A DNA stretch of 64,000 bases from Dysgonamonadaceae bacterium (GCA_047605645.1 JASGFJ010000027.1:3329-67328); one strand, 5' to 3'. Counted from the stretch's first letter, positions 1,151 to 60,199 are shown. Made by a program: numbers and translations. Notes: generated from the sequence alone by a model not told the origin.

Positions 1151-1242
1151 ACGATTAAATTTTTACGATTAGCTGGTATAAAACTCGCCTGGTTTTTGAA
1201 TCATTATTTTGCTGATTGGATAAAAATAAGGCTTCGTTTCAT
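1151..1242 (-). repeat. Dispersed ~93-bp leader element, copy B, abutting the TBDR start codon
   Basis: Minus strand: ATGAAACGAAGCCTTATTTTTATCCAATCAGCAAAATAATGATTCAAAAACCAGGCGAGTTTTATACCAGCTAATCGTAAAAATTTAATCGT-ATG. Mini-ORF MKRSLIFIQSAK* at 1204-1242. Confidence 0.85.
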
Positions 1243-1336
1243 ATACGATTAAATTTTTCTGTTAGAAGCTATAAAGCTCTTTTTATGAATGAATCATGAG
1301 CCGAAATAATTGAATAAAAATCAACTCTCTTCTATT
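1243..1336 (-). repeat. Dispersed leader element, degenerate copy A, in tandem upstream of copy B
   Basis: Minus strand ...TTGATTTTTATTCAATTATTTCGGCTCATGATTC...GCTTCTAACAGAAAAATTTAATCGTAT-ATG. It keeps the left arm and the terminal motif; the left boundary is approximate. Confidence 0.6.
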
Positions 1337-2063
1337 CGGCATAACACTCGACAAAATGCAAAGAACAAACAATCATCAATCAGTTATAAGCTCATTCTTA
1401 AATTACGAAAAAGGAGCCGCTTCAAAACACCGACAGCCACATCGGGCTGATAATTATTCAATATGCATTTTTAATGAGTATAAACTCCGATTTGTCACGA
1501 ATTTAATCCGGGCGACAGGATATCTTTACCAGACAACACTTCCCTGCTAAGCCTGAGTCTTAGGTAACATCTTGATAGAATCGGTAACGAGATTTTATAT
1601 TCACAATCACGAATATCGGATATCATCCGGATTATTTTGTGATAGACAGGTCGTTCATGTTTATTTCTCATTCTATTGTTTACAAAACAAAGATAAAAAG
1701 TGAATAAATATTTTTTCTAAATTATAGACCAAACCGCAGAATTGAGAGACCAAAATTGAAAAAACCCTGCTTTTATATCGTATTTGTAAGTGAATGTATC
1801 AAAAAAACAGAATTTCATTTTATGGCAAATTGACACTCTATCCTATGTGTTAATGAATCAATGAGTCATCACAAAAGTTCAACATAGCACCCGATAAAGA
1901 AATGTCATTGACTGGTCAATAAATATAATTACCGACATACAATAATCACCTGATTATAAACACGAAACAAGAACTATTCTTTCCAATTCACTCCTATATC
2001 CGTCTAAAGCTAGTATCTCCGGGTTTTCTGACAGTATATTTCCTGAGATAATAGAATATAATG

Positions 2064-2071
2064 TACCTTTG
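2064..2071 (+). promoter_or_regulatory. Bacteroidetes -7 promoter element upstream of serine dehydratase
   Basis: TACCTTTG matches TAnnTTTG, 22 nt before the ATG at 2094. Confidence 0.6.
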
Positions 2072-2093
2072 TCCACATTTAAAATTTGGCTTT

Positions 2094-3293
2094 ATGGAAT
2101 CGATACGAAGAATATACAAAATAGGATATGGCCCTTCCAGCAGCCATACAATGGGACCGCGGGAAGCTGTAAAGATATACAAAAAAAGGTATGTTTCAAA
2201 CAGTTATCGGGTAACACTGTATGGCAGCCTTGCAGCAACAGGCAAAGGGCATCTCACCGACAAAGCCATTATTGATGAATTTTCGCCGGCTCAGGTGGAA
2301 ATTATCTGGCAACCAGATATTCTTCTACCTTTTCATCCTAACGGAATGAAATTTGAGCGGAAAGACTCCCTTGGTAATTATATCGATGAATGGATGGTCT
2401 ACAGTGTTGGCGGAGGAGATTTAGCAGAAGAGGGTTCAACCCCATCAGAGAGCCATATCTATCCGCTAACGAATATGTACAACATCAAATCTTATTGCCA
2501 GCAAAAAGGATTGGCCTTCTGGGAATATGTTTATGAAGTGGAAGGAAAAGAAACTTTCGACTATCTGGCGGAAGTATGGGAGGTGATGATGGCGGCAATC
2601 GAAAGAGGACTTAACGAGGAAGGAGTACTTCCCGGAGGATTGGGCCTTCGTCGGAAAGCATCTTCGTATTATGTAAAATCTAGAAGTTATCAGGGTTCCT
2701 TAAAAAGCCGTTCACTTATCTATGCATACGCTTTAGCTGTTTCGGAAGAAAATGCAGCCGGAGGAAGAATTGTAACAGCACCTACATGCGGGTCGTGTGG
2801 CGCCATGCCGGCAGTGCTTTATCATTTGAAAAAAAGTCATGACACAGACGACAAACGTATTATCCGGGCTTTGGCAACAGCCGGATTAATCGGAAATATA
2901 GCCAAGTACAATGCATCTATCTCGGGCGCGGAAGTAGGCTGCCAGGGAGAAGTGGGAGTAGCGTGTGCGATGGCGGCAGGAGCAGCCAATCAACTTTTCG
3001 GAGGAACCATTTCTCAAATTGAATATGCCGCAGAAATGGGCCTAGAGCACCACTTGGGATTAACCTGCGATCCGGTGTGCGGCTTGGTACAAATTCCATG
3101 TATTGAGCGAAACGCATTTGCTGCTGCCCGGGCATTGGATTCATGTACCTTTTCGACATTGTCAGACGGCAATCACCTCGTTAGTTTCGATAAGGTAGTC
3201 CGCACAATGAAAGAAACAGGGCATGACCTGCCCAGTCTTTATAAAGAAACCTCTGCAGGAGGCTTAGCCAAAAATCACAAACGAATGAGATAA
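2094..3293 (+). CDS. sdaA: Fe-S L-serine ammonia-lyase (single-chain alpha+beta)
   Basis: IYKIGYGPSSSHTMGP, YGSLAATGKGH, IVTAPTCGSCG, GAEVGCQGEVG, GLTCDPVCGLVQIPCIERN motifs. The start is moved from 2061 to ATG 2094 because a promoter motif lies within the longer ORF. Confidence 0.93.
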   Translation: MESIRRIYKIGYGPSSSHTMGPREAVKIYKKRYVSNSYRVTLYGSLAATGKGHLTDKAIIDEFSPAQVEIIWQPDILLPFHPNGMKFERKDSLGNYIDEWMVYSVGGGDLAEEGSTPSESHIYPLTNMYNIKSYCQQKGLAFWEYVYEVEGKETFDYLAEVWEVMMAAIERGLNEEGVLPGGLGLRRKASSYYVKSRSYQGSLKSRSLIYAYALAVSEENAAGGRIVTAPTCGSCGAMPAVLYHLKKSHDTDDKRIIRALATAGLIGNIAKYNASISGAEVGCQGEVGVACAMAAGAANQLFGGTISQIEYAAEMGLEHHLGLTCDPVCGLVQIPCIERNAFAAARALDSCTFSTLSDGNHLVSFDKVVRTMKETGHDLPSLYKETSAGGLAKNHKRMR

Positions 3294-4091
3294 TCAGTCT
3301 TTTTGGGGAGTTTGACAACTACAGTTTTCGTGGTTGTGAAGCAATCGCATCGGCAAACCGTTGACAGGGCTATGGCCTATGATATCAATCGGATATGAGT
3401 ATGCCTTCTCAAGCCATTCGGAAGAGATATTGGTTCCTTCGTGGTAATGAAGTCCCTCGTTCACACAGGCAATATTTTTGACGAGCGACACAACGGAACC
3501 AATATCGTGCGATACCAGAATAATGGCCGTATTTTTATTTATTTCAAGTAAAATTTTATAGAAGTCAGACTCAAACTTTTTATCTACATAAGAATTCGGT
3601 TCATCCAGAATCAGGATATCGGGCTCATCTACAATGGAGCGTCCCAACAACACCCGTTGTAATTGCCCGCCGGATAACTGCCCGATAGGACGTGATAAGA
3701 AGTCCTGAAGCCCCATTTGCTGGGCCACATCCACCACTTTCTTCTTCTGCCGCGATGAATATCTTCCGAAAAGCCCCCGTGGCTGAGTCAACCCGGAGGA
3801 GATCACCTCGCGCACCGAGATTGGGAATTTCTTATCAACCTGATTAATCTGTGGCATATAACCGATATTAACCTTATCGGTAGACTGTCCGTTTTTATAA
3901 AACGTAATTTGCCCCGAAAACGGTTCTACAAGTCCCATAACAGACTTTAGTAAAGTAGTTTTTCCACCACCATTAGGTCCGATTATACCCAGAAAGTCAT
4001 TCTCATATACCGTCAGATTCACACCATTGAGCACCTGGTTGTCCTTTCCATAACCGGCACATAAATTCGCTATTTTCAGCACTTTATTCAT
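3294..4091 (-). CDS. znuC: Zn/Mn-type metal ABC transporter ATP-binding protein
   Basis: Walker A GPNGGGKT, signature LSGGQLQR, Walker B LILDEP, His/Cys tail HNHENCSC. Its stop abuts the convergent sdaA stop. Confidence 0.88.
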   Translation of the reverse strand: MNKVLKIANLCAGYGKDNQVLNGVNLTVYENDFLGIIGPNGGGKTTLLKSVMGLVEPFSGQITFYKNGQSTDKVNIGYMPQINQVDKKFPISVREVISSGLTQPRGLFGRYSSRQKKKVVDVAQQMGLQDFLSRPIGQLSGGQLQRVLLGRSIVDEPDILILDEPNSYVDKKFESDFYKILLEINKNTAIILVSHDIGSVVSLVKNIACVNEGLHYHEGTNISSEWLEKAYSYPIDIIGHSPVNGLPMRLLHNHENCSCQTPQKD

Positions 4092-4987
4092 TGGTTCGCT
4101 ATGGCTTTGGCAATTTTAATCATTTCATCTTTCCATTCGTAGGCCAGAGGATTTATTTCAAAGACCCTGCCGCCGATTTCACGGGCAAGCACCTGTGCAT
4201 TTTTCTTATCAAATTCCGGCTGAATAAAAATAGTTTTTATCCCCTTGCTTTTTGCTTCTCGAATGAGAGAAGTCATTTGTGAGGGCGACGGGCTTTTCCC
4301 GTTAAATTCTATAGAGAGCTGTTCCAATCCATATTCATCGGCAAAGTACGACAAGGCCGGATGATAAATAATAAAGGTTTTCTTCTGAGCCGATGCAAGA
4401 ATCGTGCGGACTATGGAATCCGTTTCACTGATTTCGTTTTTCAGATTGCTAAAATTCTGTTCGTAATAACTCTTGTTTACCGGATCCATTTTGACAACAC
4501 CCTCAAAAATACATTGAGCTACCAACAAAGCTGTCTTCGGAGAATTCCATATATGCGGATCAACAGTTCCGTGGCTGTGTCCTTCATGCGCATGTTCAGC
4601 AGATTGCATAAGAGACTTATCCTTTTGGATAGAAGAAGAACAGTCTACCAAGAGCATTTCAGGATTACTTTGGCTCAGATTATCTTTCCAGACTTTCTCA
4701 AATCCGAAAAGCCCAATCATAAAATAAGCTCTGCTATCTCCCAGTATCATCATTTCAGAAGGTGCAGGATCAAAAGATTCAGGATTACTACCTGCCGGAA
4801 CAACGGATTTGACAAGGAATTTATCCCCGACTATTTTCTCGGCAAAAAAACGTTGCGGTTCAATAGATACGGAAATATAATTATTGTTTTTGGTTGTCGC
4901 CTTTTTGGTACATCCGACAACAAAAATGCCGAAGAATACAAAGAGACAAAGTAATTTTAGATTCATTCTGTCAATTTTCAGTTTCAT
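4088..4987 (-). CDS. znuA: Zn/Mn ABC transporter substrate-binding lipoprotein (ZnuA/TroA family)
   Basis: Lipobox VVGC, VVPAGSNPESFDP, His-rich loop HAHEGHSHGTVDPHIWNSP, FIIYHPALSYFA. Confidence 0.88.
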   Translation of the reverse strand: MKLKIDRMNLKLLCLFVFFGIFVVGCTKKATTKNNNYISVSIEPQRFFAEKIVGDKFLVKSVVPAGSNPESFDPAPSEMMILGDSRAYFMIGLFGFEKVWKDNLSQSNPEMLLVDCSSSIQKDKSLMQSAEHAHEGHSHGTVDPHIWNSPKTALLVAQCIFEGVVKMDPVNKSYYEQNFSNLKNEISETDSIVRTILASAQKKTFIIYHPALSYFADEYGLEQLSIEFNGKSPSPSQMTSLIREAKSKGIKTIFIQPEFDKKNAQVLAREIGGRVFEINPLAYEWKDEMIKIAKAIANQ

Positions 4988-5021
4988 ACAAAGATACGAC
5001 TTTCAGACTGAAACCGATGTA

Positions 5022-5669
5022 TCATTTTTTAGTAAGGTCGTATATTTTACGTATTCCCTCCAGTTCTTTTTCAAAATCAATATTCAAATCCACAAGTCTG
5101 CCATTATGCAGGTCGTATACCCAGCCGACCACCCGCGGATATCCGGTTTCGTAGAAAGACTTCTGCACCTCTGCTGTTTTGATCACATTCAGGCATTGTT
5201 CTTTTACATTGATTTCAACAAATCTCCGATATCGCTCATCCACATTCGGTATTTCATCCAGTTCGTTTTGGTGTAAGCGATATACATCGCGAATATTACG
5301 AAGCCAGGGATTGAGAATACCTAAATCGCGAGGTTCCATTGCTGCTTTGATGCCACCACAATTATAATGTCCGCAAACGATTACATATTTTACTTTCAGA
5401 TGCACAACCGCATAATTAATCACCGACAATGCATTCAAGTCCGCATTCACCACCATATTTGCGATATTCCGGTGCACAAAAACCTGACCGGGCTCCAATC
5501 CCATAATTTCATTGGCATGCACCCGACTGTCGGAACATCCAATATAGAGAAAATCGGGATTTTGCTCTTTTGCCAGATGTTCAAAAAAGTTGGCATTATC
5601 TTTGGTTTTGGCTTCCACCCATGCTTTGTTTGCTTCAAATATATTTTGATATAACTCTTCTGTGCTCAT
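5022..5669 (-). CDS. can: Beta-class carbonic anhydrase
   Basis: CSDSRV and HYNCGG Zn ligands, GQVFVHRNIANMV. Likely start is ATG 5669 (MSTEELY). Confidence 0.93.
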   Translation of the reverse strand: MSTEELYQNIFEANKAWVEAKTKDNANFFEHLAKEQNPDFLYIGCSDSRVHANEIMGLEPGQVFVHRNIANMVVNADLNALSVINYAVVHLKVKYVIVCGHYNCGGIKAAMEPRDLGILNPWLRNIRDVYRLHQNELDEIPNVDERYRRFVEINVKEQCLNVIKTAEVQKSFYETGYPRVVGWVYDLHNGRLVDLNIDFEKELEGIRKIYDLTKK

Positions 5670-5954
5670 ATATTGTCGTTGATTGATTTGCACTCATAAC
5701 ATACAAACTTAATATCTCTACCAATAAGGAATACTATTTTTGTTGTTATGTAAAACAAAAAATCAGCCACAATGTTGAAGCGAATGGAAAATTTATCTCT
5801 TTTTTTATTCCCTCGAATTGGATTAAGAGCATCATTGAAACAAAAATAAAAAGAGAGTTTAAATCGCCATTTCACGTTTCTAAAGAAGTTTTTATGAATT
5901 ATATTGATGAAAGATGTATTACTTTTGCATATTCTTAAGCATTGAAACTCCATT

Positions 5955-6983
5955 ATGGTCAAAATAGAAAATATTTCAAAAACATTTTATCGGAAAGGTG
6001 TTCCTTTCAAGGCTTTGGATGATGTAAGCCTGGAGATAGAGGAGGGCCAAATTGTGGGCATTATCGGAAGCTCCGGAGCAGGAAAAAGCACCTTAATACG
6101 ATGTGTCAATCTCCTTGAAAAACCGGATTCCGGAAAAGTGCTAATCGACGGAATAGACCTAACCAGCTTACCTTCAAAAAAGTTGGCAACGGAGCGGAAA
6201 AAGATAGGTATGATATTTCAGCATTTCAACCTGCTATCTTCCCGTACGGTTTTCGAAAATATTGCTCTCCCTCTGGAATTAGACAAAGTAGATAAGGGTA
6301 AAATAGAGAAAAGAGTATCCGAGTTACTTCAACTGGTGGATCTGGAGGAAAAAAGAGACGAATATCCTAAAAATCTTTCCGGTGGACAAAAACAACGGGT
6401 TGCCATTGCCCGCGCCTTGGCCAATGAGCCGCACCTGCTTCTTTGCGACGAAGCAACCAGTGCTCTTGACCCGTCCACTACTTTATCCATCCTCCGCCTG
6501 CTGCGTGACATCAACAACCGGTTGAATATAACAATTCTATTGATCACGCATGAAATGGATGTTGTGAAAACGATTTGCGACAATATTGCGGTGATAGATC
6601 AGGGTAAAGTAGTTGCAAACGGTACATTGGAAGAACTTCTCACCAAAGATTCGCATCCGATTCTCCGCAAATTTATGCAAACCAATTCCTTAGGACTTCC
6701 TCAGGAGCTTCACAAAAAGCTTCGCAAAACACAGGAGAAAGGATTGTATCCGGTAATAGAACTCGAGTTCAACGGAACAATGGCTGTGGACGAATTATTG
6801 TCATACATCCAAGAAAATGAAACGACAACATTCTCCACGATCAAATCCGACATGGAAACGATCGGCAACAAGAGTTATGGCAAGCTTATTTTACATGTGA
6901 AGGCCGAACAAGGCAAATTCGATGTAATTGCAAGTTATTTAAACAACAATCAGATAAACATAAATCTTCGGGGATATGCTTGA
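5955..6983 (+). CDS. metN: Methionine ABC transporter ATP-binding protein
   Basis: GSSGAGKSTLIRCVNLLE, KIGMIFQHFNLLSSRTVFENIALPLE, LSGGQKQRVAIARALA, LLCDEATSALDP, plus a C-terminal extension. Confidence 0.92.
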   Translation: MVKIENISKTFYRKGVPFKALDDVSLEIEEGQIVGIIGSSGAGKSTLIRCVNLLEKPDSGKVLIDGIDLTSLPSKKLATERKKIGMIFQHFNLLSSRTVFENIALPLELDKVDKGKIEKRVSELLQLVDLEEKRDEYPKNLSGGQKQRVAIARALANEPHLLLCDEATSALDPSTTLSILRLLRDINNRLNITILLITHEMDVVKTICDNIAVIDQGKVVANGTLEELLTKDSHPILRKFMQTNSLGLPQELHKKLRKTQEKGLYPVIELEFNGTMAVDELLSYIQENETTTFSTIKSDMETIGNKSYGKLILHVKAEQGKFDVIASYLNNNQININLRGYA

Positions 6984-7629
6984 TGCCACCACACTATTAT
7001 TGCTAAAAGGGCTTTGGGAAACAATCGTTATGACGTTTGCTTCCGGATTTTTTGGTTTTCTCATTGGCCTTCCTGCCGGAACAGCTTTGTTTTTGACAAG
7101 AAAAGGACAATTGCTTGAAAACAAGACGTACCACCGCCTGCTGGCTACACTCGTGAATGTATTCCGATCAATCCCCTTTATCATATTGATTGTCTGGATG
7201 ATTCCATTCACCCGGATGCTGGTAGGGACATCCATTGGAATGGCTGCAGCACTTGTACCGTTAAGCATCGGCGCAGCACCTTTTATCGCACGGCTGGTAG
7301 AAAACAGTTTATTGGAAGTACCCGGCGGACTGATAGAAACGGCCCGATCAATGGGAGCTACTCCGTTTCAGGTTGTAACGAAAGTACTTTTACCGGAAGC
7401 TCTACCTTCGTTGGTCAACAATGCAGCCATTACACTCATTACATTGGTCGGATATTCGGCAATGGGAGGTGCCGTGGGCGCCGGAGGATTAGGGCAGATC
7501 GGATATCAATACGGATACATCGGATACGATACATTCATTATGAATACAGTACTTGTGCTGTTGGTTGCGCTGGTATTTCTTATTCAATTTGCCGGAGATA
7601 AAATTTCTCGAAAACTGAATCACAAATAG
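6976..7629 (+). CDS. metI: Methionine ABC transporter permease
   Basis: RSIPFIILIVWMIPFTR, GLIETARSMGAT, ITLVGYSAMGGAVGAGGLGQIGYQYGY. Confidence 0.93.
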   Translation: MLDATTLLLLKGLWETIVMTFASGFFGFLIGLPAGTALFLTRKGQLLENKTYHRLLATLVNVFRSIPFIILIVWMIPFTRMLVGTSIGMAAALVPLSIGAAPFIARLVENSLLEVPGGLIETARSMGATPFQVVTKVLLPEALPSLVNNAAITLITLVGYSAMGGAVGAGGLGQIGYQYGYIGYDTFIMNTVLVLLVALVFLIQFAGDKISRKLNHK

Positions 7630-7663
7630 AATTGTTTAGTGTAAATAAAAACAAAACATAGAT

Positions 7664-7755
7664 ATGAAGCAAAGCATGATTTTTATTGAATCACTCTAAA
7701 GGAAGATTAAAAAAATCAGGCAAGTTCCATACCACCTACTAGTAAAAATTTACGT
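7664..7755 (+). repeat. Dispersed leader element, copy C, between metI and metQ
   Basis: ATGAAGCAAAGCATGATTTTTATTGAATCACTCTAAAGGAAGATTAAAAAAATCAGGCAAGTTCCATACCACCTACTAGTAAAAATTTACGT-ATG(metQ). Mini-ORF MKQSMIFIESL* at 7664-7699. Confidence 0.88.
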
Positions 7756-8565
7756 ATGAAAAAATTAACTATCCGGAATCTGATTCTTGTCGGAACCATT
7801 CTCTTAAGTTCTTGTGGTAAATCGTCAAAATCGGATACGCATTTCATTCAAGTGGGAATTTCGGCCGGACCGGAAAAAGAACTGGCAGAGGCTGCAAAGA
7901 AAGTGGCAAAAGAAAAATACAACCTCGATGTGGAGTTGGTCGTTTTCAACGATTATGTAATGCCGAACGAAGCACTCAGCAACAAAGAGATTGATGCCAA
8001 TGCCTTTCAACATATTCCTTATCTGGAAGAGCAGTCCAAACAGAGAGGTTACAAACTGGTAGTGGTCGGAAAAACATTCCTCTACCCTATTATCGCGTAT
8101 TCAAAAAAAATTAAATCCGTATCGGAATTACAAAACGGCAATACTGTTGCTATCCCGAACGACCCGACAAACGGCGGCCGGGCTTTGCTCCTATTGCAAA
8201 AAAACAAACTAATCAAGTTGCGCGACGGTGTAGGTCTGCTACCGAAAGTGACTGACATTGTCGCGAATCCGAAAAATCTGAGAATCCTTGAAATAGAAGC
8301 TCCTCAGTTGACGAGAGTAATTGACGACAAAGATGTGGTGGTAGCTATTATCAATAATAATTTTGCCTCACAGGCAGGACTCGATGCCTCCCGGTATGGC
8401 ATCATGACCGAAGATAAAGAATCTCCTTACATGAATGTGATTGTAGCCAGACCGGACAATAAGAATGCAGAAAATGTCAAAAACTTTGTCAAAGCTTATC
8501 AGTCGGCTGAAGTTGAAAAAACAGCAGAGAAAGCTTTCAAGGGACAAGCAATCAAAGGTTGGTAA
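7756..8565 (+). CDS. metQ: Methionine ABC transporter substrate-binding lipoprotein (MetQ/NlpA)
   Basis: Lipobox LLSSC, FNDYVMPNEAL, DANAFQHIPYL, VAIPNDPTNGGRALLLL. Confidence 0.93.
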   Translation: MKKLTIRNLILVGTILLSSCGKSSKSDTHFIQVGISAGPEKELAEAAKKVAKEKYNLDVELVVFNDYVMPNEALSNKEIDANAFQHIPYLEEQSKQRGYKLVVVGKTFLYPIIAYSKKIKSVSELQNGNTVAIPNDPTNGGRALLLLQKNKLIKLRDGVGLLPKVTDIVANPKNLRILEIEAPQLTRVIDDKDVVVAIINNNFASQAGLDASRYGIMTEDKESPYMNVIVARPDNKNAENVKNFVKAYQSAEVEKTAEKAFKGQAIKGW

Positions 8566-8569
8566 TATT

Positions 8570-8661
8570 TCTCTCCGTTATGAGTGTTAGGGTGAATGAA
8601 ATTCGCCTGTTTCTTGAATCATAGATCGGGGAGTTCTAATAAAATTCAGGCTTTGTTTCAT
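8570..8661 (-). repeat. Dispersed leader element, copy D, antisense just downstream of metQ
   Basis: Minus strand CGA-ATGAAACAAAGCCTGAATTTTATTAGAACTCCCCGATCTATGATTCAAGAAACAGGCGAATTTCATTCACCCTAACACTC. Mini-ORF MKQSLNFIRTPRSMIQETGEFHSP* at 8587-8661; there is no gene downstream in its orientation. Confidence 0.8.
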
Positions 8662-8812
8662 TCGGGAATGCCCCTAATTAGCTGTAAGTATATACACCTA
8701 TAACTCGATAAAAAATAAGCAACATCGAAAATCAGATACATAAAACTAATTTTTCATGGAGCGACTTCGTATATTATCACAACATTGGATATAGGCAATT
8801 ACTGCGATACTC

Positions 8813-8904
8813 GTGTGACACCATCACTAGCGTTAGTGTGATACCTTCACTCGTGCTAGTGCGATACCCTCACTAGCGTTAGTGTGACATCATCATCCGT
8901 ACGC
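8813..8904. repeat. 23-bp tandem minisatellite, about 4 units
   Basis: Units GTGTGACACCATCACTAGCGTTA / GTGTGATACCTTCACTCGTGCTA / GTGCGATACCCTCACTAGCGTTA / GTGTGACATCATCATCCGTACGC, starting at 8813, 8836, 8859 and 8882. Confidence 0.85.
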
Positions 8905-9130
8905 GTGTCATATCTTCATAAAAAATAGGACTGAAAATAGCGGAAAACGAAGGTCAAGTATTTTAGCCGAATGAAAAAAATACCGAATTTGGCATGTTGG
9001 GGCAGATTTGCAATGCTTACGCAATTCTCCAAAGGACACTACGCTAGAAGGAAGTTGTTTCCAAAGAAAATAAAGTTTAACAGAATAAATAGTTGCAAAC
9101 ACTGTCGGGTAGAAGCACCCAAGCATCGCA

Positions 9131-9164: not shown

Positions 9165-9235
9165 CTTCCTTTTATAATAACTCATCCTCATTCCGATGAG
9201 GACATAAGATTCATCAACTCATTTCATGTAACCGA

Positions 9236-11668: not shown

Positions 11669-13074
11669 AAAACAGAGAGATAAGGTTTATATCACATCTC
11701 TTTAAAAAGTAAAGAGATTCACAACGATTTCATCCAAAAAAAATGAATATATCATTCATTTACGCTAACTGAAAATTCAAGGCTAAGTTACAAAAAAGAA
11801 ATTATTCATTTTACAAAAAAGCTCAAAAAAAATTGGTTATTTTTACTAAACGAGAGAATGAACTATCAACAGTAACCAACTGATTCTGAAAACAAATAAA
11901 GAATGTCACTTTATTTTGGCAATAAGCATCCTTTTGATATAAAACAAGCATTCAAAACAGCTATTTTTTTCTTTACAAAAGGACAGTACTTCTCTCTCCA
12001 ATTATTCCATTCCGGGCTTCACCCGACAGAGATAATCCCGATTGAAGTAAGCTCTTTTTCTCAGATTTAGCCTCATCGCTCCAAATAGATGACCATTACA
12101 AGAAAAGGGAGCAACTTTGCAAACTGAAATTTTAGGGAACAATTCCTCCGGATTCAAAACTGAACTTCCGGGCAATCGTTTTACAGAACAAACAAAGCTA
12201 AACAACCGGATATACCCGTTTGCAATCATCCGTTCCGCTTCCGGAGCCTTGTTTGGGAGTAATTGCCGGCAACAATATTCATTTACTCCGGCAAATAGAA
12301 TGGAATTCTACACTGTTGCTCTTCATCAATGAAGTATGATAATATATACCACACATTGAAGACATTTGCCATACACAAGCAATTTACGGTGTTGCCCTGA
12401 ATAAATTTTTAGAATGGTGTGATTCGCATTACAAAGCAAGCACATCCCTAAAGAGCACAACAACGGACTAAAACTTAGAAAGCCAAAGCCTTCTGAAGAA
12501 GATAAAAAAGAAGCATTACAGAAGCCTATTTGCAATGATTTATACTAAAAAGTACGAGCCACATTCTATATATAAGGAATGTATTCCAGTAAGCAAACGT
12601 TCATAATTAGCTGCAAGCAGATACACGCGTATTATACGTGATAATAAAAAATAGGAGGAATTGTATACCTAAAACTTATTTTATGGGGCTACTTACCAAA
12701 ATATAGCTTTACCTAAAGACAGAAGGATTTTCCCATTCCTGAATTATCCATTTAAAGAGACACAAGCTTGGCTATCGCTCACATTCGAAAAGAAACCTGA
12801 AATCAACCGTCATAAATGCGACGAGACAGTCACACCTTAACAAATCCATTCCGACTGCACCAATCACATACCAATTGCCTTCGCTCAAACAGAACCTTAT
12901 TTTTGAAGTCAAACAAAAGAAACCGATAAACAGAATTCACACAAAGGGCAGAATTTGCAACGCCGGCAAAAGAGTCATAAAAAAATAAGTCCGGCATCAG
13001 AAACCATATTCCATCCGCCGGACTCAAGAATCAAATATAAATAGCCTGTAAACTTTCCCTCAGGCATTCATGTA

Positions 13075-14760: not shown

Positions 14761-14783
14761 ATCTTTTTGGTTGGTTATTTCTG

Positions 14784-39936: not shown

Positions 39937-42012
39937 TTAATAATTAGCAGTTATTGTTTTCACTTTCGACGACCTGCCTTCATCGGTAATATACAGAACC
40001 GTATAAGTATAGTTGTTGCCCGCAGAAACGGTTTCATCCGTTACCCGTGTCTCTGATTGTCCCAGTTCTTTCCATAAAACCATCTTTCCGTCTTCAGCAG
40101 TTTTATAGATTCTGTATAGCTTTGCTTTTTCGTGCTTTCTCCAGGACAACTCGATATAGCCTTTATGGATATCTGCATAATAAGTCAGACCGGAAACCTC
40201 ATCAGGCGCTACACCTGCGTTAATATCAATCTCAAGGGGTTGCGGAGACAATGATTTCTTTCCATCCGGACTATAAGCTATCAGGGTATAACGGTAGCGG
40301 CCCGAAGTCGTTATTTCATCTGTGTAAGATGTGGTATGGTTGTCCCCCGAAAAGACTGTTCGTGTATCTTTGGGGTTATGGGAGTTTGTCCGGATTAATT
40401 TATACGTAATCGCAGGATGCTTCGGATCGGTTATCCATTGAATCGTAACTTTATTCTCCGTCACAAATGTATATCCGGTAATAACTGGCTCATCCGGAGT
40501 TTGATGGTTGGGTTTGATTGCTTTGACCGGCATACAGGGTGCCGATTCATTATAGCGTTCATCTATCGCTGTCAGGCAGTAATAGACATAAGTATTCCCC
40601 AAATCAAAGGAAAGCGTATCTGCATAATGGTTTTGGGTAATCAATTCCGGTGTTATCGAAGACTTTTCTTCACTTTGTGTGAAAGCACGCAAAATGCGGT
40701 AGCCGAATAAGTCAGGCTCCGTATTGGCATTCCATGTTAAATGAGCAATTCCCGCAGAGTCTACCTCTACCTTGAGTCCTGCCGGAACAGCCGGAGGTAT
40801 AGAATCTATCTGCGTAAGTAAAAAAGGAAAAGATTCCGTTTTGCGGCCATCCTTACTTTCGGCGCTCAATTTGACATAAGCGCGGGCTTCGGTTAACGGG
40901 AACTCCAAGTCTCTTCTATCTAAGGAAATATTGTTGATCTGGAGACGGTATTCTCCATCTATCTTCTGCGATACCGACAGACTGAATTTGTCGGCCTCAC
41001 TGTGGTCTTCGCACTGAAACTCCCAGTAGATTTTGGCCCGATCCTTATCTGTGAAATCCCCGTTGTAAATATGGGGAATACAAGTCAAGGCTTTTTCTCC
41101 TTTTCCGCCGACTTCTTCACTGCAAGGCCCGGTCTCATCAAATCCGGTCAATCCGGTTATCCGGTAGGTATAATGAGTTTCATTGTTAGCCAGGCTGTCG
41201 GTGTAGAAAATTTCTTTCATTTCCCCGTCGAGAGCCGTAAGGGGCAGCTTTGTTATCTTCTTAAAAATCCCTCCCTCTTCTTTCCGCTCGATATGATAGG
41301 AATGGTAAGTATCTGATAACAGGATATAGTTCCACGACAACATGGCTGCCTTATCGCCAAACAAAGCATTTAACCCGATGGGGCTGGGCAGTTCTTTTTT
41401 GTCTTCCACTCCGATATAAACAGCCGCAGTATCTCCCTTTGCTCCGTTCGGCGGATTTAGACAAATGCGGTATAAATACCGTTCATTTTCCTTTATTGTA
41501 TTATCCGTCCATGCCCAGCCGGCCAGTCCTGCGGCTTTATAATCATATTCAGCCATAAAAAGAGAGGTGGAAAAACGCTGTTCCAGCTCGTTCGCCTGAT
41601 TGATAATACCACCGATACCCTTGCCTCCGGATGCACTAAGCTCAAAATCCTCGCCATACAATGCCTGTGCAATAACCGCAGCATAATCCGACTTATTCGC
41701 ATATTCTACCCAGTCAGCCAAAGGCCGTGGCCGGAAATTTTCGACCAGGATTGCCTCTGCCGGAGCTTCCTGCCACCGCTTATCGATCATTACCGTGTAA
41801 CGCTTGATTGTATATCCGTATTTAATCCCGTCAGCCCATGCTCTTGTATTTCCCGGAGACCAACGCAGCCGTATCTCATCCTTATCTGCGACAAAACCTC
41901 TTGCCCGAATAGCTTCTTTGTGTATAGCCGCTTCTTCCTGCGCCGATATTCCCGAAGATATCGACCCTAGAAAAACAAAGAGTAGCAGTTGTATTTGTGT
42001 TATATATTTCAT
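39937..42012 (-). CDS. Exported multi-Fn3-domain protein
   Basis: Signal peptide; IRLRWSP, LPSPIGLNALFGDKAAMLSW, DSIPPAVPAGLKV, LTWNANTEPDLFGYRI. Confidence 0.8.
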   Translation of the reverse strand: MKYITQIQLLLFVFLGSISSGISAQEEAAIHKEAIRARGFVADKDEIRLRWSPGNTRAWADGIKYGYTIKRYTVMIDKRWQEAPAEAILVENFRPRPLADWVEYANKSDYAAVIAQALYGEDFELSASGGKGIGGIINQANELEQRFSTSLFMAEYDYKAAGLAGWAWTDNTIKENERYLYRICLNPPNGAKGDTAAVYIGVEDKKELPSPIGLNALFGDKAAMLSWNYILLSDTYHSYHIERKEEGGIFKKITKLPLTALDGEMKEIFYTDSLANNETHYTYRITGLTGFDETGPCSEEVGGKGEKALTCIPHIYNGDFTDKDRAKIYWEFQCEDHSEADKFSLSVSQKIDGEYRLQINNISLDRRDLEFPLTEARAYVKLSAESKDGRKTESFPFLLTQIDSIPPAVPAGLKVEVDSAGIAHLTWNANTEPDLFGYRILRAFTQSEEKSSITPELITQNHYADTLSFDLGNTYVYYCLTAIDERYNESAPCMPVKAIKPNHQTPDEPVITGYTFVTENKVTIQWITDPKHPAITYKLIRTNSHNPKDTRTVFSGDNHTTSYTDEITTSGRYRYTLIAYSPDGKKSLSPQPLEIDINAGVAPDEVSGLTYYADIHKGYIELSWRKHEKAKLYRIYKTAEDGKMVLWKELGQSETRVTDETVSAGNNYTYTVLYITDEGRSSKVKTITANY

Positions 42013-42136
42013 TTGTTATTTATTTTCATTCTTATGGAAAGATGAGATACACATGCCGGTCATTATTCTTATTGGGCGCGGCAGCTACAAAACATGCATA
42101 TTCCATCCGATTTAATTTTTACGGTCAGTAATCCGC

Positions 42137-42164
42137 ATGGAGACGTTGCATGCAATGTCTCTAC
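42137..42164. repeat. REP-like palindrome
   Basis: ATGGAGACGTTGCA|TGCAATGTCTCTAC, close to the GTAGAGACGTTGCATGCAACGTCTCTAC type of palindrome; intergenic. Confidence 0.65.
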
Positions 42165-52461: not shown

Positions 52462-52554
52462 ATGAAACAAAGCATGATTTTTATTCAATCACTCAAAACA
52501 ATGATGAAAAAATCAGGCAAGTTGCAGGCCACCTAACAGTAAAAATTAAATCGT
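52462..52554 (+). repeat. Dispersed leader element, copy G, filling the susC-susD gap
   Basis: ATGAAACAAAGCATGATTTTTATTCAATCACTCAAAACAATGATGAAAAAATCAGGCAAGTTGCAGGCCACCTAACAGTAAAAATTAAATCGT-ATG(susD). Mini-ORF MKQSMIFIQSLKTMMKKSGKLQAT* at 52462-52536. Confidence 0.9.
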
Positions 52555-54102: not shown

Positions 54103-54136
54103 CAATTCGTATTGATTGTAAATGAATATAAAAGAC

Positions 54137-55024: not shown

Positions 55025-55031
55025 ATGAATT

Positions 55032-55138
55032 ATGAAACAATGCCTGATTTTTATAAAATCACCCAACACAAGGATTAAAAATCAGGCAAATTGAGACCTT
55101 ACATGTAGCGTCTCTACTAACAGTAAAAATTAAATCGT
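55032..55138 (+). repeat. Dispersed leader element, copy H (perfect 12-bp stem, REP-like insert)
   Basis: ATGAAACAATGCCTGATTTTTATAAAATCACCCAACACAAGGATTAAAAATCAGGCAAATTGAGACCTTACATGTAGCGTCTCTACTAACAGTAAAAATTAAATCGT-ATG. Mini-ORF MKQCLIFIKSPNTRIKNQAN* at 55032-55094. Confidence 0.9.
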
Positions 55139-56356
55139 ATGAAAAACAAACTGGTATATCTTAAACTATTTTCAGCTGCACTAATGCTCTTTGGGGTTAG
55201 TTGCACAACGGGAGAGACTTATTCCGATTTGGATGAAGAGGGACAGGATCTTTATTCTCAGCAAGCCATGATTTTCAAAGCAGACGGAACGAACAGCAAA
55301 CAAGCATTGTTCAGTGATGTTTCCGGAGCGATGCTCGATACGGATAGTGCTGCTGTTGCAAGCTTCCAGTTCAATGCTGTACTGGTAAAGAAAAACGCTC
55401 GGCGGGTAAGCTTGGCAATAGCATCAACCCCCAACCAGGTCGATGTATACAATCAGGTGTATGGAACATCTTACCTTCAGTTGCCTGAAGAATTAGCTTC
55501 TTATACCAAAACTTTGTCTATCGACTCGGCAAAGGTGCTTTCGGATAATGGAACATTGACGGTTAAATATTCTTCAAAATTGAAAGTAGGTCAAAAATAT
55601 CTTCTGGCATTGACTGCCTCTTCCCAAAGCGATGGCATTGGAGTTATGGAAACTACCAAGACCATGTTTTATTCTATTCAGTTGGAAAGCAATAAAGTGA
55701 CAACCTCGGCTTTATTAACACGTGAAACGTACTTTAAAATAAATAAGAACAACTCTAAAATCTCCGATTTAGGTACGACATTCACCCTTGAAGGGTTGAT
55801 CTGTGTCAGCAAGTTCCGCACGGCAAGTGATGTGGGAGATGCGCAAATCAGTACATTTATGGGAACAGAAGGAGGAACATTAGTTCGTTTCGGTGATGCC
55901 GGGCTGGATGGCAACAGGTTACAGGCAAACGGTACGGCTGTCGGAAGTGCCTTCTCTCTCAACAAATGGTATCACGTCGCATTGGTGGTCAACAATGGAA
56001 CTTCTTCTGTCTACATCAACGGAGAACCGGCAGGTACTTTTGCAAAAGCGGGAAGCATCGGCGAATTTTATATTGGTCGCAGCTATAACGACAATCGGGG
56101 CATTGATGCCAAAGTAGCTGAAATTCGTATCTGGAAGACTGCGAGAACAGCAGAGCAGATTAAGCAGTGCATGTACAAAGTTAAAGATTTGACGGGCATT
56201 TACGCTTATTGGAGAATGAACAGCATTACAGACGGCCTTATCCGGGACGATTCCGGCAACGACAACAATCTGGTCTTGTGGGGACAGCCAAGCAATGTAC
56301 AGAAAGTCATCACGTTGGTTGACGAAGGAGCAGACGGCGTGCAAGTTGGCAAATAA
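55139..56356 (+). CDS. Surface glycan-binding lipoprotein (DUF1735 + LamG/concanavalin-like domain)
   Basis: Lipobox GVSC; VYNQVYGTSYLQLPEE (DUF1735-like); FTLEGLI, KWYHVALV, VYING, AEIRIWKTART, AYWRMN (LamG). Confidence 0.85.
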   Translation: MKNKLVYLKLFSAALMLFGVSCTTGETYSDLDEEGQDLYSQQAMIFKADGTNSKQALFSDVSGAMLDTDSAAVASFQFNAVLVKKNARRVSLAIASTPNQVDVYNQVYGTSYLQLPEELASYTKTLSIDSAKVLSDNGTLTVKYSSKLKVGQKYLLALTASSQSDGIGVMETTKTMFYSIQLESNKVTTSALLTRETYFKINKNNSKISDLGTTFTLEGLICVSKFRTASDVGDAQISTFMGTEGGTLVRFGDAGLDGNRLQANGTAVGSAFSLNKWYHVALVVNNGTSSVYINGEPAGTFAKAGSIGEFYIGRSYNDNRGIDAKVAEIRIWKTARTAEQIKQCMYKVKDLTGIYAYWRMNSITDGLIRDDSGNDNNLVLWGQPSNVQKVITLVDEGADGVQVGK

Positions 56357-56365
56357 ATATGAATC

Positions 56366-57802
56366 ATGAAAACGTATAAAGCGATGAAAAAAACAATGAT
56401 AATATTGGGAACAGTCCTGGCTGTGATCTTATCCGGTTGTTCCGAAGACATAAAATACACCACCAACCTGCCTGAGAGCGGGTATATAAATTCCGGTGAG
56501 GGGGTTATTTATCTGAAAAACCAGAAAGAAGAGACACATGCTCTGTTGTGGAAAGACAGCACACTCACCTTTCAAGTGGAAATTCCGGAAGCTTTCGATA
56601 CAGATACGGTCATTCCCCTGAACACAAACCAGATATCGACAATCGTAGGTAATTACAATGAATTTATGTGCGCCGATCGTCCGGAAGCCAAAGATTATTC
56701 TGTATTTCCTTCCACAAACTATACTTTCTCGGGAGTAAACGTGAAAAAAGGAGAAACTTCAGCAGAGGCAACATTGGTCGTGAAGCAATTTACCGGCAGC
56801 AGCAATTATGGCGATTACATCCTGCCCATAAATTTCTCTATTCACGGGCGCAATTATCTCTATCATGTATTTGTCAGAAAGGACGGGGATTTTTCGCCGT
56901 TATCTGCCACAAATAAGAAAGCCATGCCTGCAGGAGCATACAGTTGTCCGGACAGAAAAGAACCGATGAAAATGATTGCTTATGTCGAAACCAACAATTA
57001 TGACATCCGTAATTATGGACAAGTGGTTTTGGAAAACACTAAAAAGCCGGTATTTGATGCGGTCGTTTTGTTTGCTGCGAACATGAATTACGATGCGACT
57101 GCCAAAAAGAGGGTCGTTTATTTCAACGATAAATTGCAACCCATCATCAAAAATCCGGAAAAATACATCAAGCCACTCACCGACAGAGGCATTAAAGTAA
57201 TCATCACTCTTCTCCCGAATCATCAGGGAGTGGGATATGCAAACTTCCAAAATTATAATGAAGCTCTTGCCTTTGCCAAAGATATGAAAGTATGGACAGA
57301 CAAACTTGGAATAGACGGATGGGATATCGACGAAGAATATGCCGATTATGGGAATCAACCTTCTCTTCCAACAACCGGAGTGCAGTCTTATTTCTGGTAT
57401 ATGAGGGCCATGAAGGAAGTGATGCCCGATAAAATGCTGACTCTCTACGACTATGGACATAGCCTGCAGGCAACATCTGTGGACGATCAAGGGAAAAAGG
57501 CATCGGATTACATCGATTTAAGCTGGACCGATTATTGGGTGCAAAAGCCCTCTTATGCAGGTATTCCCAACAACAGATTCGGGATTTATTCTTATGAAGC
57601 GAATCGCTACAATTTATCGTATGTGGAAAGTGCAGCGAAACTAAACTTGCAAGGTTGCTACGGATTGCAGATGTTCTTTAATATCAATCCTACTTCTTTT
57701 TTGGATGCCACTCAAATGACATACCTGAGCAAAGCCACTCAATTATTCTATGGCGAGCGTGCTGTTTTCTCCGGAAAATATCATGTTGGGCCGACAAAAT
57801 AG
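56366..57802 (+). CDS. GH18 endo-beta-N-acetylglucosaminidase lipoprotein (EndoF1/BT3987-like)
   Basis: Lipobox LSGC; AYVETNN, DAVVLFAANMNYD, LLPNHQGVG, intact GIDGWDIDEEY (DxDxE). Confidence 0.88.
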   Translation: MKTYKAMKKTMIILGTVLAVILSGCSEDIKYTTNLPESGYINSGEGVIYLKNQKEETHALLWKDSTLTFQVEIPEAFDTDTVIPLNTNQISTIVGNYNEFMCADRPEAKDYSVFPSTNYTFSGVNVKKGETSAEATLVVKQFTGSSNYGDYILPINFSIHGRNYLYHVFVRKDGDFSPLSATNKKAMPAGAYSCPDRKEPMKMIAYVETNNYDIRNYGQVVLENTKKPVFDAVVLFAANMNYDATAKKRVVYFNDKLQPIIKNPEKYIKPLTDRGIKVIITLLPNHQGVGYANFQNYNEALAFAKDMKVWTDKLGIDGWDIDEEYADYGNQPSLPTTGVQSYFWYMRAMKEVMPDKMLTLYDYGHSLQATSVDDQGKKASDYIDLSWTDYWVQKPSYAGIPNNRFGIYSYEANRYNLSYVESAAKLNLQGCYGLQMFFNINPTSFLDATQMTYLSKATQLFYGERAVFSGKYHVGPTK

Positions 57803-57871
57803 AAGCACAAAGAAACTCGTTCAGTAAGTTTTAGGAAAAAGATGGAAGTAAAGTTTTAGGAACATGAGGCG

Positions 57872-57907
57872 AATGCCCGAAGGAGATTTTCTTATCCTTC
57901 GGGCATT
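57872..57907 (+). terminator. Terminator-like hairpin closing the PUL
   Basis: AATGCCCGAAGGA-loop-TCCTTCGGGCATT, a 13-bp stem. Confidence 0.75.
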
Positions 57908-58465
57908 TCCGTTACCTGTGTTTTTTCGAAAGAATCAGAAGGCAATATGTAAATAAATATTCCTGATTAATGCGAACACATACTCCAACATCACACTGAA
58001 AATAAATAATATAACATACACAACAAATAGTAGAGAACTACTTATATAAATAACAAGCTGCCGGAGGAGAAGGCTGTTCGGGAGAAAGTTCCGTGAGACG
58101 GTTGCAGAAATACATCAGACAAAAAGGCAGTCAGGAGAAGGCTGTAGAATACACGGGTATTCCTTCGGAAAATACCCGGAAAGGTAGATAAGCCTGTTTC
58201 AAAGGAAAAAGTTCTTGAAAATAACAGCCGGAAAATGTTAAGCTAAAAAAAAGTCCGGTAGCTTCCGACTAAAAACGTCTAAACAACTGAATATAAAGTA
58301 AAAGTAACGCCATCTATCCTAAAACACATTGAAGAGACACACGAACGCACATCCAGCTATCCTTCGTTTACAGACAGGGAAATGACGAGTCCGGTCGAAT
58401 ACTGAATTTTATTAGAGAAATATATTTTTTATGATAAAATAATGTTGAATTAGTAGACTGATTTT

Positions 58466-58473
58466 TACCTTTG
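58466..58473 (+). promoter_or_regulatory. Bacteroidetes -7 promoter element of the DUF853 gene
   Basis: TACCTTTG, 38 nt upstream of the ATG. Confidence 0.6.
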
Positions 58474-58511
58474 TTATAAAAGACACAATTCTAAGAACAA
58501 AAATACGTCTT

Positions 58512-60053
58512 ATGTACGACAATGAACATCAAGCATTGACCGCCTTAGCTTCAGGAAAAGAAATCAACTTTCCCCCTAAAATGCTGAACAGACATGGTTT
58601 GATTACCGGAGCGACAGGAACCGGGAAAACCGTAACCCTGCAGACTTTAGCCGAAACCTTAAGTCAGATGGGAGTTCCGGTCTTTGCGGCAGACATCAAG
58701 GGCGATTTGTCGGGTCTGGCAAAAGCCGGCGGCGATAAAGACAGTGTGAACCAGCGGGTCAAGGATTTTCACCTCGCCGAAAAGGGATTTGCCTTTCAGA
58801 ACTTTCCTGTACAATTTTGGGATGTATTCGGCCAACAAGGCCATCCGGTGCGATGTACAATCTCTGAAATGGGGCCTGTCCTGCTCGAAAGATTACTTTC
58901 GCTGAACGAAACTCAGGGAACCGTACTTTCACTGGTTTTTAAAATAGCTGATGATAACGGTTTGTTGCTTATCGATTTGAAAGACTTGCAGAAAATGCTG
59001 GAATACGTAGGCAATAAGCGGAATGAATTTACCACAAAGTACGGAAATATTTCAGCGGCCAGTATTGGTGCCATACAGCGCAACCTGATGCGACTCGAAT
59101 CGGAAGGCGCCGCCAGTTTTTTCGGCGAACCGGCTCTGGATATTAACGATTTGCTCCAAACCGACCAGCAGAAAGGAGTGATTAATATCCTGGCTGCCGA
59201 CAAGTTAATGAATGCTCCGCGAGTATACACCTCCTTCTTGTTATGGATGCTGTCAAATCTTTATGAGAATCTGCCGGAAGTAGGAGATTTGGATAAACCG
59301 AAGCTGGTATTCTTTTTCGATGAAGCTCATTTGCTCTTCAATGATATGTCAACGGCTTTGTCGGAAAAAATAGTACAGATTGTCCGCCTTATACGTTCAA
59401 AAGGAGTCGGAATATTTTTTGTCACCCAAAATCCGGCCGATATTCCTCAAACGGTGTTAGGACAGCTCGGAAACCGGGTGCAGCATGCTTTGCGCGCTTA
59501 TACCCCCAACGATCAGAAAGCCGTGAAAATAGCGGCACAGACCTTCCGCGCCAATCCGGACTACTCCACAGAGCAGGTGATTACCGAATTAAATACCGGC
59601 GAAGCCCTCGTCTCTTTTCTGGATGAACAAGGAGCTCCGACAATGGTGCAACGTGCTTACATTGTTCCTCCTCAAAGCCGGATTGGCCCACTCACCCCTG
59701 AAGAAAGACAGCAAGTCATCAGGCAATCGTTGGTTTTCGGCATCTATGAGAAAGCGGAGGATCGGGAATCTGCTTATGAAATACTTTCGAATCGGCAACA
59801 AGCTGAATCCCTGGAAAAACAGAAAGAAGAAGATGAAAAACAACGGATACGGCAACAAAAAGAAGCACAAAAAGCACAGATAGAGGCAGAAAAAGCAGAA
59901 AGAGCTGCCGAACGCCAGCGTAAAGCAGAAGGTGGCGGGATACTGGAGGATATGCTCACGCAGATAGGGAAATCGGCTACGCGCCAAATCTCAAATCAAA
60001 TAGGGAGATCCATCGTCCGTACCATTTTCGGTACGTTTTTCGGAAAGAAATAA
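58512..60053 (+). CDS. DUF853/YjgR HerA-like P-loop ATPase
   Basis: [64 protein letters not shown]. Confidence 0.92.
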
Positions 60054-60098
60054 TTTTCCCTTATCGGGAACAAATAATGCTGAGATAAATAAAATCGC

Positions 60099-60199
60099 AT
60101 GAGGTAAAGTATGTTTTTTATTAAACCGACCAACATAATCATTAAAAAAAAACGAATAGAAACATTGAATACAACGTCTACCAGTAAAAATAAAATCGT
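60099..60199 (+). repeat. Dispersed leader element, degenerate copy I, abutting the Cof gene start
   Basis: AAATCGC-ATGAGGTAAAGTATGTTTTTTATTAAACC...CAACGTCTACCAGTAAAAATAAAATCGT-ATG; codon 3 is TAA. Confidence 0.65.

Follow-up and report, generated by a model that had tools for sequence, protein, structure and literature searches.

A hairpin repeat directly upstream of ATGAAA gene starts in a Dysgonamonadaceae genome: probable old copies of a start-codon-targeting, non-autonomous mobile element

Nine copies of a dispersed hairpin repeat are found in a 64,000-nucleotide stretch of the genome of a Dysgonamonadaceae bacterium (GCA_047605645.1, JASGFJ010000027.1:3329-67328), the whole of which is referred to here as the window. 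These repeats are probably old copies of a non-autonomous mobile element that targets start codons. The insertion point of this element lies directly 5' of the hexamer ATGAAA (a start codon followed by a lysine codon). An earlier note, made from the sequence alone, had described the repeat as a mini-open reading frame (mini-ORF), a hairpin and a start site; all nine copies that it listed are present, with a common unit of approximately 92-107 nt at each interval, and a tenth, partial copy can be added at 42097-42164 (-). Three features were overlooked at that stage: the ATGAAA target, an internal GTTCCAT that is complementary to both the 5' end of the element and the target, and the superfamily, spread across the order, to which the repeats belong. 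No description of this repeat family was found in Rfam or in the searched literature, and the element is apparently undescribed. As the earlier note had supposed, it matches no named Rfam family: a scan of the window has a tRNA as its sole match, with nothing else reaching the gathering threshold; scanned permissively, copy G (52462-52554) gives matches at chance level only. Viral contigs and plasmids have no match to the element.

Copy number and target site

A hidden Markov model trained on the nine window copies was searched against the whole genome to which the window belongs (G000; 4.78 Mb, 97 contigs, 39.8% G+C), with one further iteration. There are 184 matches at first and 192 after the iteration, and the same nine window copies are recovered (E-values against the whole genome: 1.6e-19 to 2.4e-7). 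Because 176 copies have E<1e-5, the family is far beyond chance AT-rich similarity, and the genome-wide enrichment for which the earlier note had proposed a check is present. The consensus is ATGAAACGAAGCCTGATTTTTATTAAATCACCCAAAACAATGATTAAAAAATCAGGCGAGTTCCATACCACCTAACAGTAAAAATTAAATCGT (93 nt).

An exact ATGAAA lies directly 3' of 121 of the 173 copies that have a 3' end. An ORF of at least 60 amino acids begins at offset 0 in 105 of the 173 and within a few bases in 114, and approximately a third of the copies have no gene behind them. ATGAAA is found at the start of approximately 25% of the crude gene calls in this genome (844), and approximately one in eight ATGAAA-initiated genes has a copy. 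Gene starts are enriched as sites (66% of copies versus 35% of ATGAAA sites, with sites inside the interiors of genes left out). The orientation of insertion relative to ATGAAA is the same in every copy, and in all of the other families discussed below. For 84 of the 105 gene-start copies the upstream gene is on the same strand, and in 24 of those 84 its stop is no more than 30 nt away; in these intercistronic positions an internal promoter is unnecessary.

The sequence on the other side of the element is also that of a gene start. A position-weight model was made from 1,818 unambiguous native starts and has the A-rich peak at -14..-10 that is typical of Bacteroidota. Under this model, the 25 nt that precede the element's 5' ATGAAAC have a native-like score (2.20, versus 2.85 for native starts), as opposed to -1.08 for sequence preceding non-genic ATGAAA (p = 1e-16). 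Insertion hit a pre-existing gene start, and the native leader still lies ahead of the 5' ATGAAAC that belongs to the element.

The hexamer is present on both sides of the element, although its 5' copy does not always match the gene start. Variant hexamers are found at both ends of three copies (two GTG...GTG copies with GTGAA. at both ends and one ATA...ATA copy with ATAA.. at both ends), and non-consensus bases common to both flanks number 9 versus 4.9 in shuffles, which is marginal (permutation p = 0.05). The 5' ATGAAAC is also kept at several genes that start with ATGAGA, ATGAAG or ATGACA; for one ATGAGA-starting gene an orthologue comparison was attempted, and the relatives have no close orthologue.

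Filled and empty sites

Two syntenic loci are filled in a congener (G001) and empty in G000, where the gene's own ATGAAA is present. A third locus, the clearest of these cases, is found in another family of the order, between nrfH and nrfA (a c-type cytochrome gene and nrfA, Cytochrom_C552). Here, a 98-nt copy is present in genomes G212 and G328 (94% identity) and the site is empty in G325 (76% identity) and G031; in the filled sites the native spacer still precedes the element, and ATGAAACC is the gene start in all four genomes. The orthologous loci are otherwise unchanged between the filled and the empty state. One copy in G000 is nested in an unrelated, TA-targeting miniature inverted-repeat transposable element (MITE2), intact copies of which have a single ATGGAA/ATAAAA hexamer at this position. 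The metQ gene of the window is absent from the congeners and does not serve as an anchor for such a comparison. Filled and empty states at orthologous loci, which the earlier note proposed to compare, are thus observed, and its view of a non-autonomous mobile module in front of unrelated genes is strengthened by both the target preference and these sites. For the target-site duplication that it also proposed to look for, the flanks point both ways, as described above.

The distribution of the element is patchy, with two of the four congeners containing it. Full copies have a median of 80% identity to the consensus (maximum 95%) and 81% to their nearest neighbours, and decayed copies reach 65-80%. 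A copy that is orthologous between G000 and G001 is heavily decayed in both species. This star-like identity pattern is that of an old burst: the family is inactive in this lineage and its copies are decaying neutrally. Strains in metagenomes that are diverged by 4% or less retain all of the window copies examined. More recent activity is seen elsewhere: among the copies in G212, which number at least 39, five are at 97% identity or more.

Replacement of the native leader

The A-run of the element is at -14..-10, the position of the native A-rich peak. Its tail scores 3.75 versus 2.85 for native starts (p = 0.005), and the consensus tail scores 6.0. The tail mimics the native initiation region, which has no Shine-Dalgarno (SD) sequence, and the gene stays translatable. 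The good leader formed by the tail explains why the host tolerates insertion at gene starts and within operons. Once the element is in place, the native leader would drive only a decoy ATGAAAC, buried in the foot of the hairpin, and the real start would be located behind AGTAAAAATTAAATCGT, with the A-run placed on the native -14..-10 optimum. The ready-made translation start proposed in the earlier note is therefore correct for the SD-independent leader and incorrect for the ATG, which is the gene's own and is present at empty sites.

If this interpretation is true, selfish DNA has taken the place of the leader in approximately one in eight genes of this organism that begin with ATGAAA, some of them within operons (susC-susD), and the same replacement has occurred in another lineage at nrfH-nrfA. 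The element would then be a large, unannotated source of variation in 5' untranslated regions in Bacteroidales. For annotation, its copies yield false 'MKRSLIFIKS...' micro-genes and wrong start calls. The tail would represent a portable SD-less initiation region, providing both a test set for good Bacteroidota leaders and a candidate part for expression design in laboratory strains of Bacteroides.

At two copies (G000 C8:51421 (-) and C30:12590 (-)), the decoy start is in frame through the whole element and into the gene. Read-through at these loci, if used, would add approximately 33 N-terminal residues, and constitutes an annotation trap.

Hairpin and mini-ORF

The hairpin is real, with 88% of cells paired versus 26-46% when the partners are slid. 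Within the genome, compensatory changes are not in excess over shuffles, and mismatches in the stems are no more commonly G.T (126) than A.C (139); the single G-U-compatible change in copy F, cited in the earlier note as evidence of RNA structure, consequently carries no weight. A hairpin maintained as RNA at individual loci, which the note had also proposed, is not supported, since within-genome covariation equals that of shuffles. Pairing between the internal guide and the terminal triple (described below) decays like the hairpin within this genome.

The mini-ORF fares similarly. Its start codon is kept in 117 of 149 full copies (lost in 21%), its length varies from 1 to 33 codons with no three-base periodicity, and in other families it ends after 4-8 codons. 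On these four grounds a leader peptide is ruled out, and the mini-ORF of the original description is not conserved. The pattern is that of selfish DNA whose structure matters during movement, not of RNA kept by selection at each locus.

Forms of the element

Approximately a fifth of full copies (33/149, including H and I of the window) are of a long form that has an extra second palindrome, GTAGAGACGTTGCATGCAACGTCTCTAC. This second palindrome and the tail are also found without the first hairpin, for example at 42097-42164 (-) of the window. The palindrome itself (GTAG...CTAC, REP-like) occurs at 58 sites in G000, of which 38 are in or beside the element and 20 elsewhere; the site in the window is 42137-42164, and the sites away from the element include a tandem array with a 67-nt period at C14:4586-4747. 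It may be an independent nested repeat.

There are nine tandem pairs of the element in the genome, as expected if each copy regenerates the target. A comparison of a tandem pair on contig C8 with a paralogue on C3 was ambiguous as to the exact element boundary, the tails being alike. In one copy (C8:82693-82801 (+)), the first hairpin is inverted relative to all other copies, with both loop and arms flipped, which is the outcome to be expected when a DNA palindrome undergoes intramolecular recombination or is replicated across.

A superfamily spread through the order

A covariance model was built from 48 copies of G000, G001 and G004 and run over 300 other genomes sampled across the order. It matches 15 of these genomes, from approximately 14 other families. 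The architecture in common is ATGAAACGA(A)GCATG - variable hairpin - CATGCGAGTTCCAT-NNN-ACC - approximately 20 A/T-rich nt - N'N'N'|ATGAAA. Judging from these matches, the repeats are members of a superfamily spread through the order (Bacteroidales-type genomes).

The hairpin is the most variable part of this architecture. Its stems are entirely different between families yet paired, with changes on both sides in 16 of 22 pairs, and the between-family covariation score is 0.299 versus 0.105 shuffled (0/500; slid controls: 0.064 or less), in an alignment that is fitted to the model structure and in which pair counts are somewhat inflated. Covariation, another of the checks proposed in the earlier note, is thus absent within the genome and present between families. 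In contrast to the stems, the ATGAAAC:GTTCCAT helix is invariant across families, and the 5' ATGAAAC is so even at genes starting with ATGACA, ATGAGA or ATGTAT. Covariation also links the triple that follows GTTCCAT to the final three bases of the element (CCG/CGG, ATG/CAT, ACG/CGT, CTG/CAG and AAG/CTT). In silico, this guide triple and the terminal triple are fully paired in 16 of 23 dereplicated combinations, versus 6.1 expected (p<5e-5).

Also present in G212 are long forms to which a small hairpin is added, a sister subfamily (ATGAAACCTCCATG…CATGGGGTTCCAT), and cargo forms that are non-coding and approximately 350 nt in length (L162, L163, L164 and L165 on contigs C73, C59, C5 and C110, respectively). 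All of these forms end directly on the ATG of a gene. In the cargo forms, arrays of the repeat GTCATT(A/G)NT precede repeats of AAATGAC (iteron-like); their word depth in metagenomes from lake and marine samples suggests more than 100 copies.

Copies in the window

The copies in the window are as follows.

Copy A, 1243-1336 (-): decayed; upstream partner in a head-to-tail pair with B (nhmmer C27:4574-4661, E-value: 2.7e-11).
Copy B, 1151-1242 (-): full short form; its final base adjoins the ATGAAA (1150) of a TonB-dependent receptor gene (E-value: 7e-18).
Copy C, 7664-7755 (+): short form; between an ABC permease gene (end 7629) and the ATG of NlpA/MetQ at 7756.
Copy D, 8570-8661 (-): orphan; its 3' tail has decayed and no gene start follows.
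Copy E, 47418-47518 (-): strongly decayed; upstream partner in a tandem pair with F (E-value: 2.4e-7).
Copy F, 47336-47417 (-): orphan, followed by ATGGAA and a frame of merely 21 codons.
Copy G, 52462-52554 (+): the top-scoring copy of the genome (E-value: 1.6e-19); within an operon, between a susC-like stop (52453) and a susD-like ATG (52555).
Parts of copy G: 5' ATGAAAC, 52462-52468; hairpin, 52472-52518; decayed internal guide GTTGCAG, 52521-52527; A-rich tail, 52528-52554.
Copy H, 55032-55138 (+): long form with the second palindrome; adjoins the ATG (55139) of a Laminin_G_3/BT_3987-like_N protein.
Copy I, 60099-60199 (+): decayed long form; adjoins the ATG (60200) of a fusion of Hydrolase_3 (Cof-type HAD) and 4HBT thioesterase.
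Tenth, partial copy, 42097-42164 (-): second palindrome and tail (CCGTAAAAATTAAATCGG) followed by ATGGAA, approximately 85 nt upstream of a gene starting at 42012.

Five copies (B, C, G, H and I) were previously described as fused to the ATG of unrelated genes; these fusions are confirmed, and the downstream proteins are those previously named. These are a TonB-dependent receptor (CarbopepD_reg_2 and Plug domains), NlpA/MetQ, a SusD-like protein, a Laminin_G_3 lipoprotein and the Cof-HAD/thioesterase fusion, the functions of which are unrelated. Copy G starts 8 nt past the susC-like stop.

Two other observations concern this part of the genome. The ABC permease and NlpA/MetQ genes (window 5955-8661) have no counterpart in the four congeners or in two further genera of the family, and their closest relatives (70% identity) are found in Limibacterium, Chryseobacterium and Sphingobacterium; metQ is flanked by the inverted copies C and D. 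These genes may have been acquired horizontally. Secondly, an unrelated MITE of approximately 103 nt is located at 12591-12694 (+), with approximately 45 copies genome-wide (for example, G000 C20:18489-18591). It has the inverted ends AAGTAAATGTTCATAATTAG and CTAATTTTATTGAACTACTT and flanks that fit a TA target, and at least six copies, in both orientations, lie at the T|A between the last base of the start-codon element and the ATGAAA of the gene.

Proposed mechanism of insertion

If the repeats are copies of a mobile element, a guide-directed, single-strand mechanism is plausible, though somewhat short of an even chance. The proposed model is as follows. Insertion would run through a folded single strand. 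The guide (sense strand, GTTCCAT-NNN; bottom strand, NNN-ATGGAAC), located at the foot of the hairpin, is complementary to the 5' end of the element, to its last three bases and to the target hexamer (TTTCAT/ATGAAA), and would pair with the 5' end and the last three bases. The joined ends, N'N'N'|ATGAAAC, would make a perfect 10-bp helix with the guide, and the integrated right junction, N'N'N'|ATGAAA, would pair with it almost as well.

The bottom strand is the better candidate for the folded form. On this strand, ATGGAAC is 2 nt 5' of the stem, and the TTTCAT at each end is complementary to it. The mismatch caused by the invariant C of GTTCCAT is A.C on the sense strand and a G.T wobble on the bottom strand, and in folds of single-stranded DNA the ATGAAAC/GTTCCAT helix closes on the bottom strand only. 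The bottom-strand layout is TTTCAT | tail … guide - hairpin … GTTTCAT |, as in IS608. By analogy, we think that the element may work like a peel-and-paste element of the IS200/IS605 type. Membership in IS200/IS605 is not claimed, because the only Y1 (IS200-like) transposase is a pseudogene, Y1 genes do not track the element, replication-strand bias is absent, short forms have a single hairpin, and G000 has neither an IS110-type transposase nor an integron integrase.

These and several other results weigh against the mobile-element interpretation. The Y1 pseudogene of G000 (L111, C20:28295-28588 (-)) stands alone and is interrupted by TAG and TAA stops. Neither the covariance model (run without filters) nor the GAGTTCCAT motif finds element ends in the flanks of 26 Y1_Tnp loci in 10 genomes, the locus of this pseudogene among them. 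A Y1 partner was sought in the genome itself, in 40 relatives and in seven element-rich genomes, and none is linked; nor does the presence of Y1_Tnp in relatives track that of the element. IS110-type transposases are absent from G000, and no integron integrase is above the cut-off (TIGR02249). Gene-start copies are on the G-rich strand in 67% of cases versus 60% for ATGAAA genes (p = 0.22), a test that used local GC skew on draft contigs and old insertions. Short forms have one hairpin, not two, and the second palindrome of long forms, approximately 20 nt from the other end, is unrelated to the first. No strain-level empty sites and no excision or circle junctions were seen, the metagenome contigs either spanning copies or breaking in them without skip joints. 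The 5' ATGAAA gives conflicting hints, of duplication (the two GTG cases and the ATA case) and of being borne by the element (the ATGAGA, ATGAAG and ATGACA genes). The fit of the between-family alignment to the model structure must also be counted here. Three metatranscriptome runs contain little of the locus, and an additional RNA-level role may exist at some loci.

The source of the enzyme is addressed by two further searches. An autonomous copy was sought in G000 as partial hits with only the 5' or only the 3' end and as ORFs opening with ATGAAACGA, and none was found. The partial hits in G212 are long forms or the non-coding cargo forms, and no parent insertion sequence (IS) with these ends is present in G000 or G212. 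We infer that the mobilising enzyme is absent or dead in this genome. A bolder and unlikely version of the model is a start-codon-homing system, with a 7-10-nt internal guide complementary to the most common gene start of the phylum, that is moved by an enzyme outside the Y1/IS200, IS110 and integron integrase families and so represents new single-strand insertion machinery. If true, such a system would have a 'harmless landing' design, in which the hairpin conceals the old start and the element provides a new leader. In either version, the base-pair-guided choice of a 6-7-nt target without a linked known transposase would point to insertion machinery that merits a search.

Alternative explanations

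The repeats could instead be a maintained cis-regulatory RNA leader, acting as a translational switch or a processing/stability module before approximately 110 genes. Such an RNA would have two exclusive helices, 5' AUGAAAC:GUUCCAU and GUUCCAU-NNN:N'N'N'-AUGAAA, the latter masking the real start. Both helices exist, the second covaries between families, and the start-masking helix is part of the predicted minimum-energy fold in some families. In both 5' leaders and intercistronic positions, copies are on the sense strand, and the tail is a good initiation region. There is also a precedent in FopS/GibS, where pairing at the start region regulates in Bacteroides (PMC11697453); the FopS small RNAs themselves are ruled out as an identity for the element, being trans-acting RNAs of 65-70 nt with their own promoters (PMC11697453). 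This explanation is nevertheless improbable. Selection on an RNA does not agree with the lack of a compensatory excess within the genome, with G.T being about as frequent as A.C, or with the decay of copies to 65-80% identity, including heavy decay in both species of the copy shared with G001. No gene follows approximately a third of the copies, and the genes that do follow are functionally unrelated. The hairpin, which is the sole candidate sensor, varies the most, and the conserved A.C mismatch weakens both helices in the sense RNA. Finally, the element is present or absent at orthologous loci without any other change.

A folded single-strand recombination site of the integron attC type is a second alternative, in which a tyrosine recombinase would swap strands at the ATGAAA core with a chromosomal ATGAAA. 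Integron attC sites are imperfect hairpins with AAC/GTT at the base, then a spacer that stays unpaired, another box and a terminal structure that varies widely. The element follows the same plan: its imperfect hairpin has a conserved AAC/GTT at the foot, next to it an unpaired spacer and a GCATG/CATGC box, and its terminal structure is highly variable in length and sequence; the insert is flanked by identical cores on both sides in a strict orientation, and generic tyrosine recombinases are present in G000. However, the genome lacks an integron integrase above the cut-off, and copies are dispersed singly before syntenic core genes rather than in cassette arrays. The ATGAAAC/GTTCCAT boxes do not fit RYYYAAC/GTTRRRY, and the tail of approximately 27 nt between the GTT box and the junction is absent from attC sites. 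The chance that this explanation is correct seems slim.

An ordinary MITE, for which a DDE transposase would duplicate the target (ATG or ATGAAA) at insertion, could account for the hexamer on both flanks and for the marginal excess of shared variants (including the GTGAA. and ATAA.. copies), but is very improbable given the lack of terminal inverted repeats beyond ACGA...TCGT, the strict orientation relative to an asymmetric target, the invariance across families of the 5' ATGAAAC even at ATGACA, ATGAGA or ATGTAT genes, and the lack of a parent IS in G000 or G212.

Comparison with known systems

As a probable start-codon-targeting mobile element, the family can be compared with four groups of known sequences. 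Like REP/BIME repeats (repetitive extragenic palindromes and bacterial interspersed mosaic elements, associated with RAYT transposases), it consists of high-copy extragenic palindromes, and the second palindrome of its long form starts with GTAG and ends with CTAC. Unlike them, it is AT-rich, approximately 93 nt long, associated with start codons and found in a single orientation, in a genome without an intact RAYT/Y1 gene. Integron attC sites resemble it in the imperfect hairpin with an AAC...GTT foot and in the conservation of structure rather than sequence; they differ in that the element has no cassette arrays or IntI, has boxes that are off consensus and has an extra tail between hairpin and junction.

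Neisseria REP2 and Borrelia IR-A/IR-B are stem-loop repeats that lack terminal inverted repeats and bring a ribosome-binding site that is joined to the ATG of unrelated genes (PMC3184786). The element is similar to both in being dispersed, approximately 100-150 nt in length, with internal stem-loops, and located directly upstream of unrelated ORFs with its 3' end fused to the ATG. The element is not related in sequence to these repeats, nor to IS200/IS605 elements and PATEs. REP2 has a promoter, an SD-type ribosome-binding site and approximately 25 copies, whereas the element is SD-less and A-rich with approximately 190 copies, targets a defined hexamer, carries an internal guide and is clearly present or absent at orthologous sites. 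REP2 and IR-A/B appear to be the closest systems functionally, as an analogy and not by homology.

In IS608, the target is kept on the left flank, the guide is 5' of the hairpin foot, the cleavage motif is at the right tip, and the intermediate is a circular single-strand junction (PMC5934647). The element differs from IS200/IS605 members in its longer target (6-7 nt, TTTCAT on the bottom strand, versus 4-5 nt), in usually having one hairpin and one guide for both ends, in guide pairing that spans the junction (3 nt of element and 6-7 nt of target), and in having neither a linked Y1 TnpA in 10 genomes nor a lagging-strand bias, which is strong in elements of the IS608 type. Like IS200/IS605 elements (IS608) and palindrome-associated transposable elements (PATEs), it has no inverted terminal repeats, its ends having only ACGA...TCGT in common. 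As in IS608, insertion is strictly oriented beside a short specific sequence that is retained on one flank (on the bottom strand, TTTCAT precedes the element), a hairpin is located near one end, an internal sequence by the hairpin foot is complementary to the cleavage and target sites, and the element end repeats the target motif. By this analogy, IS200/IS605 elements and PATEs appear to be the systems that are mechanistically closest to the element.

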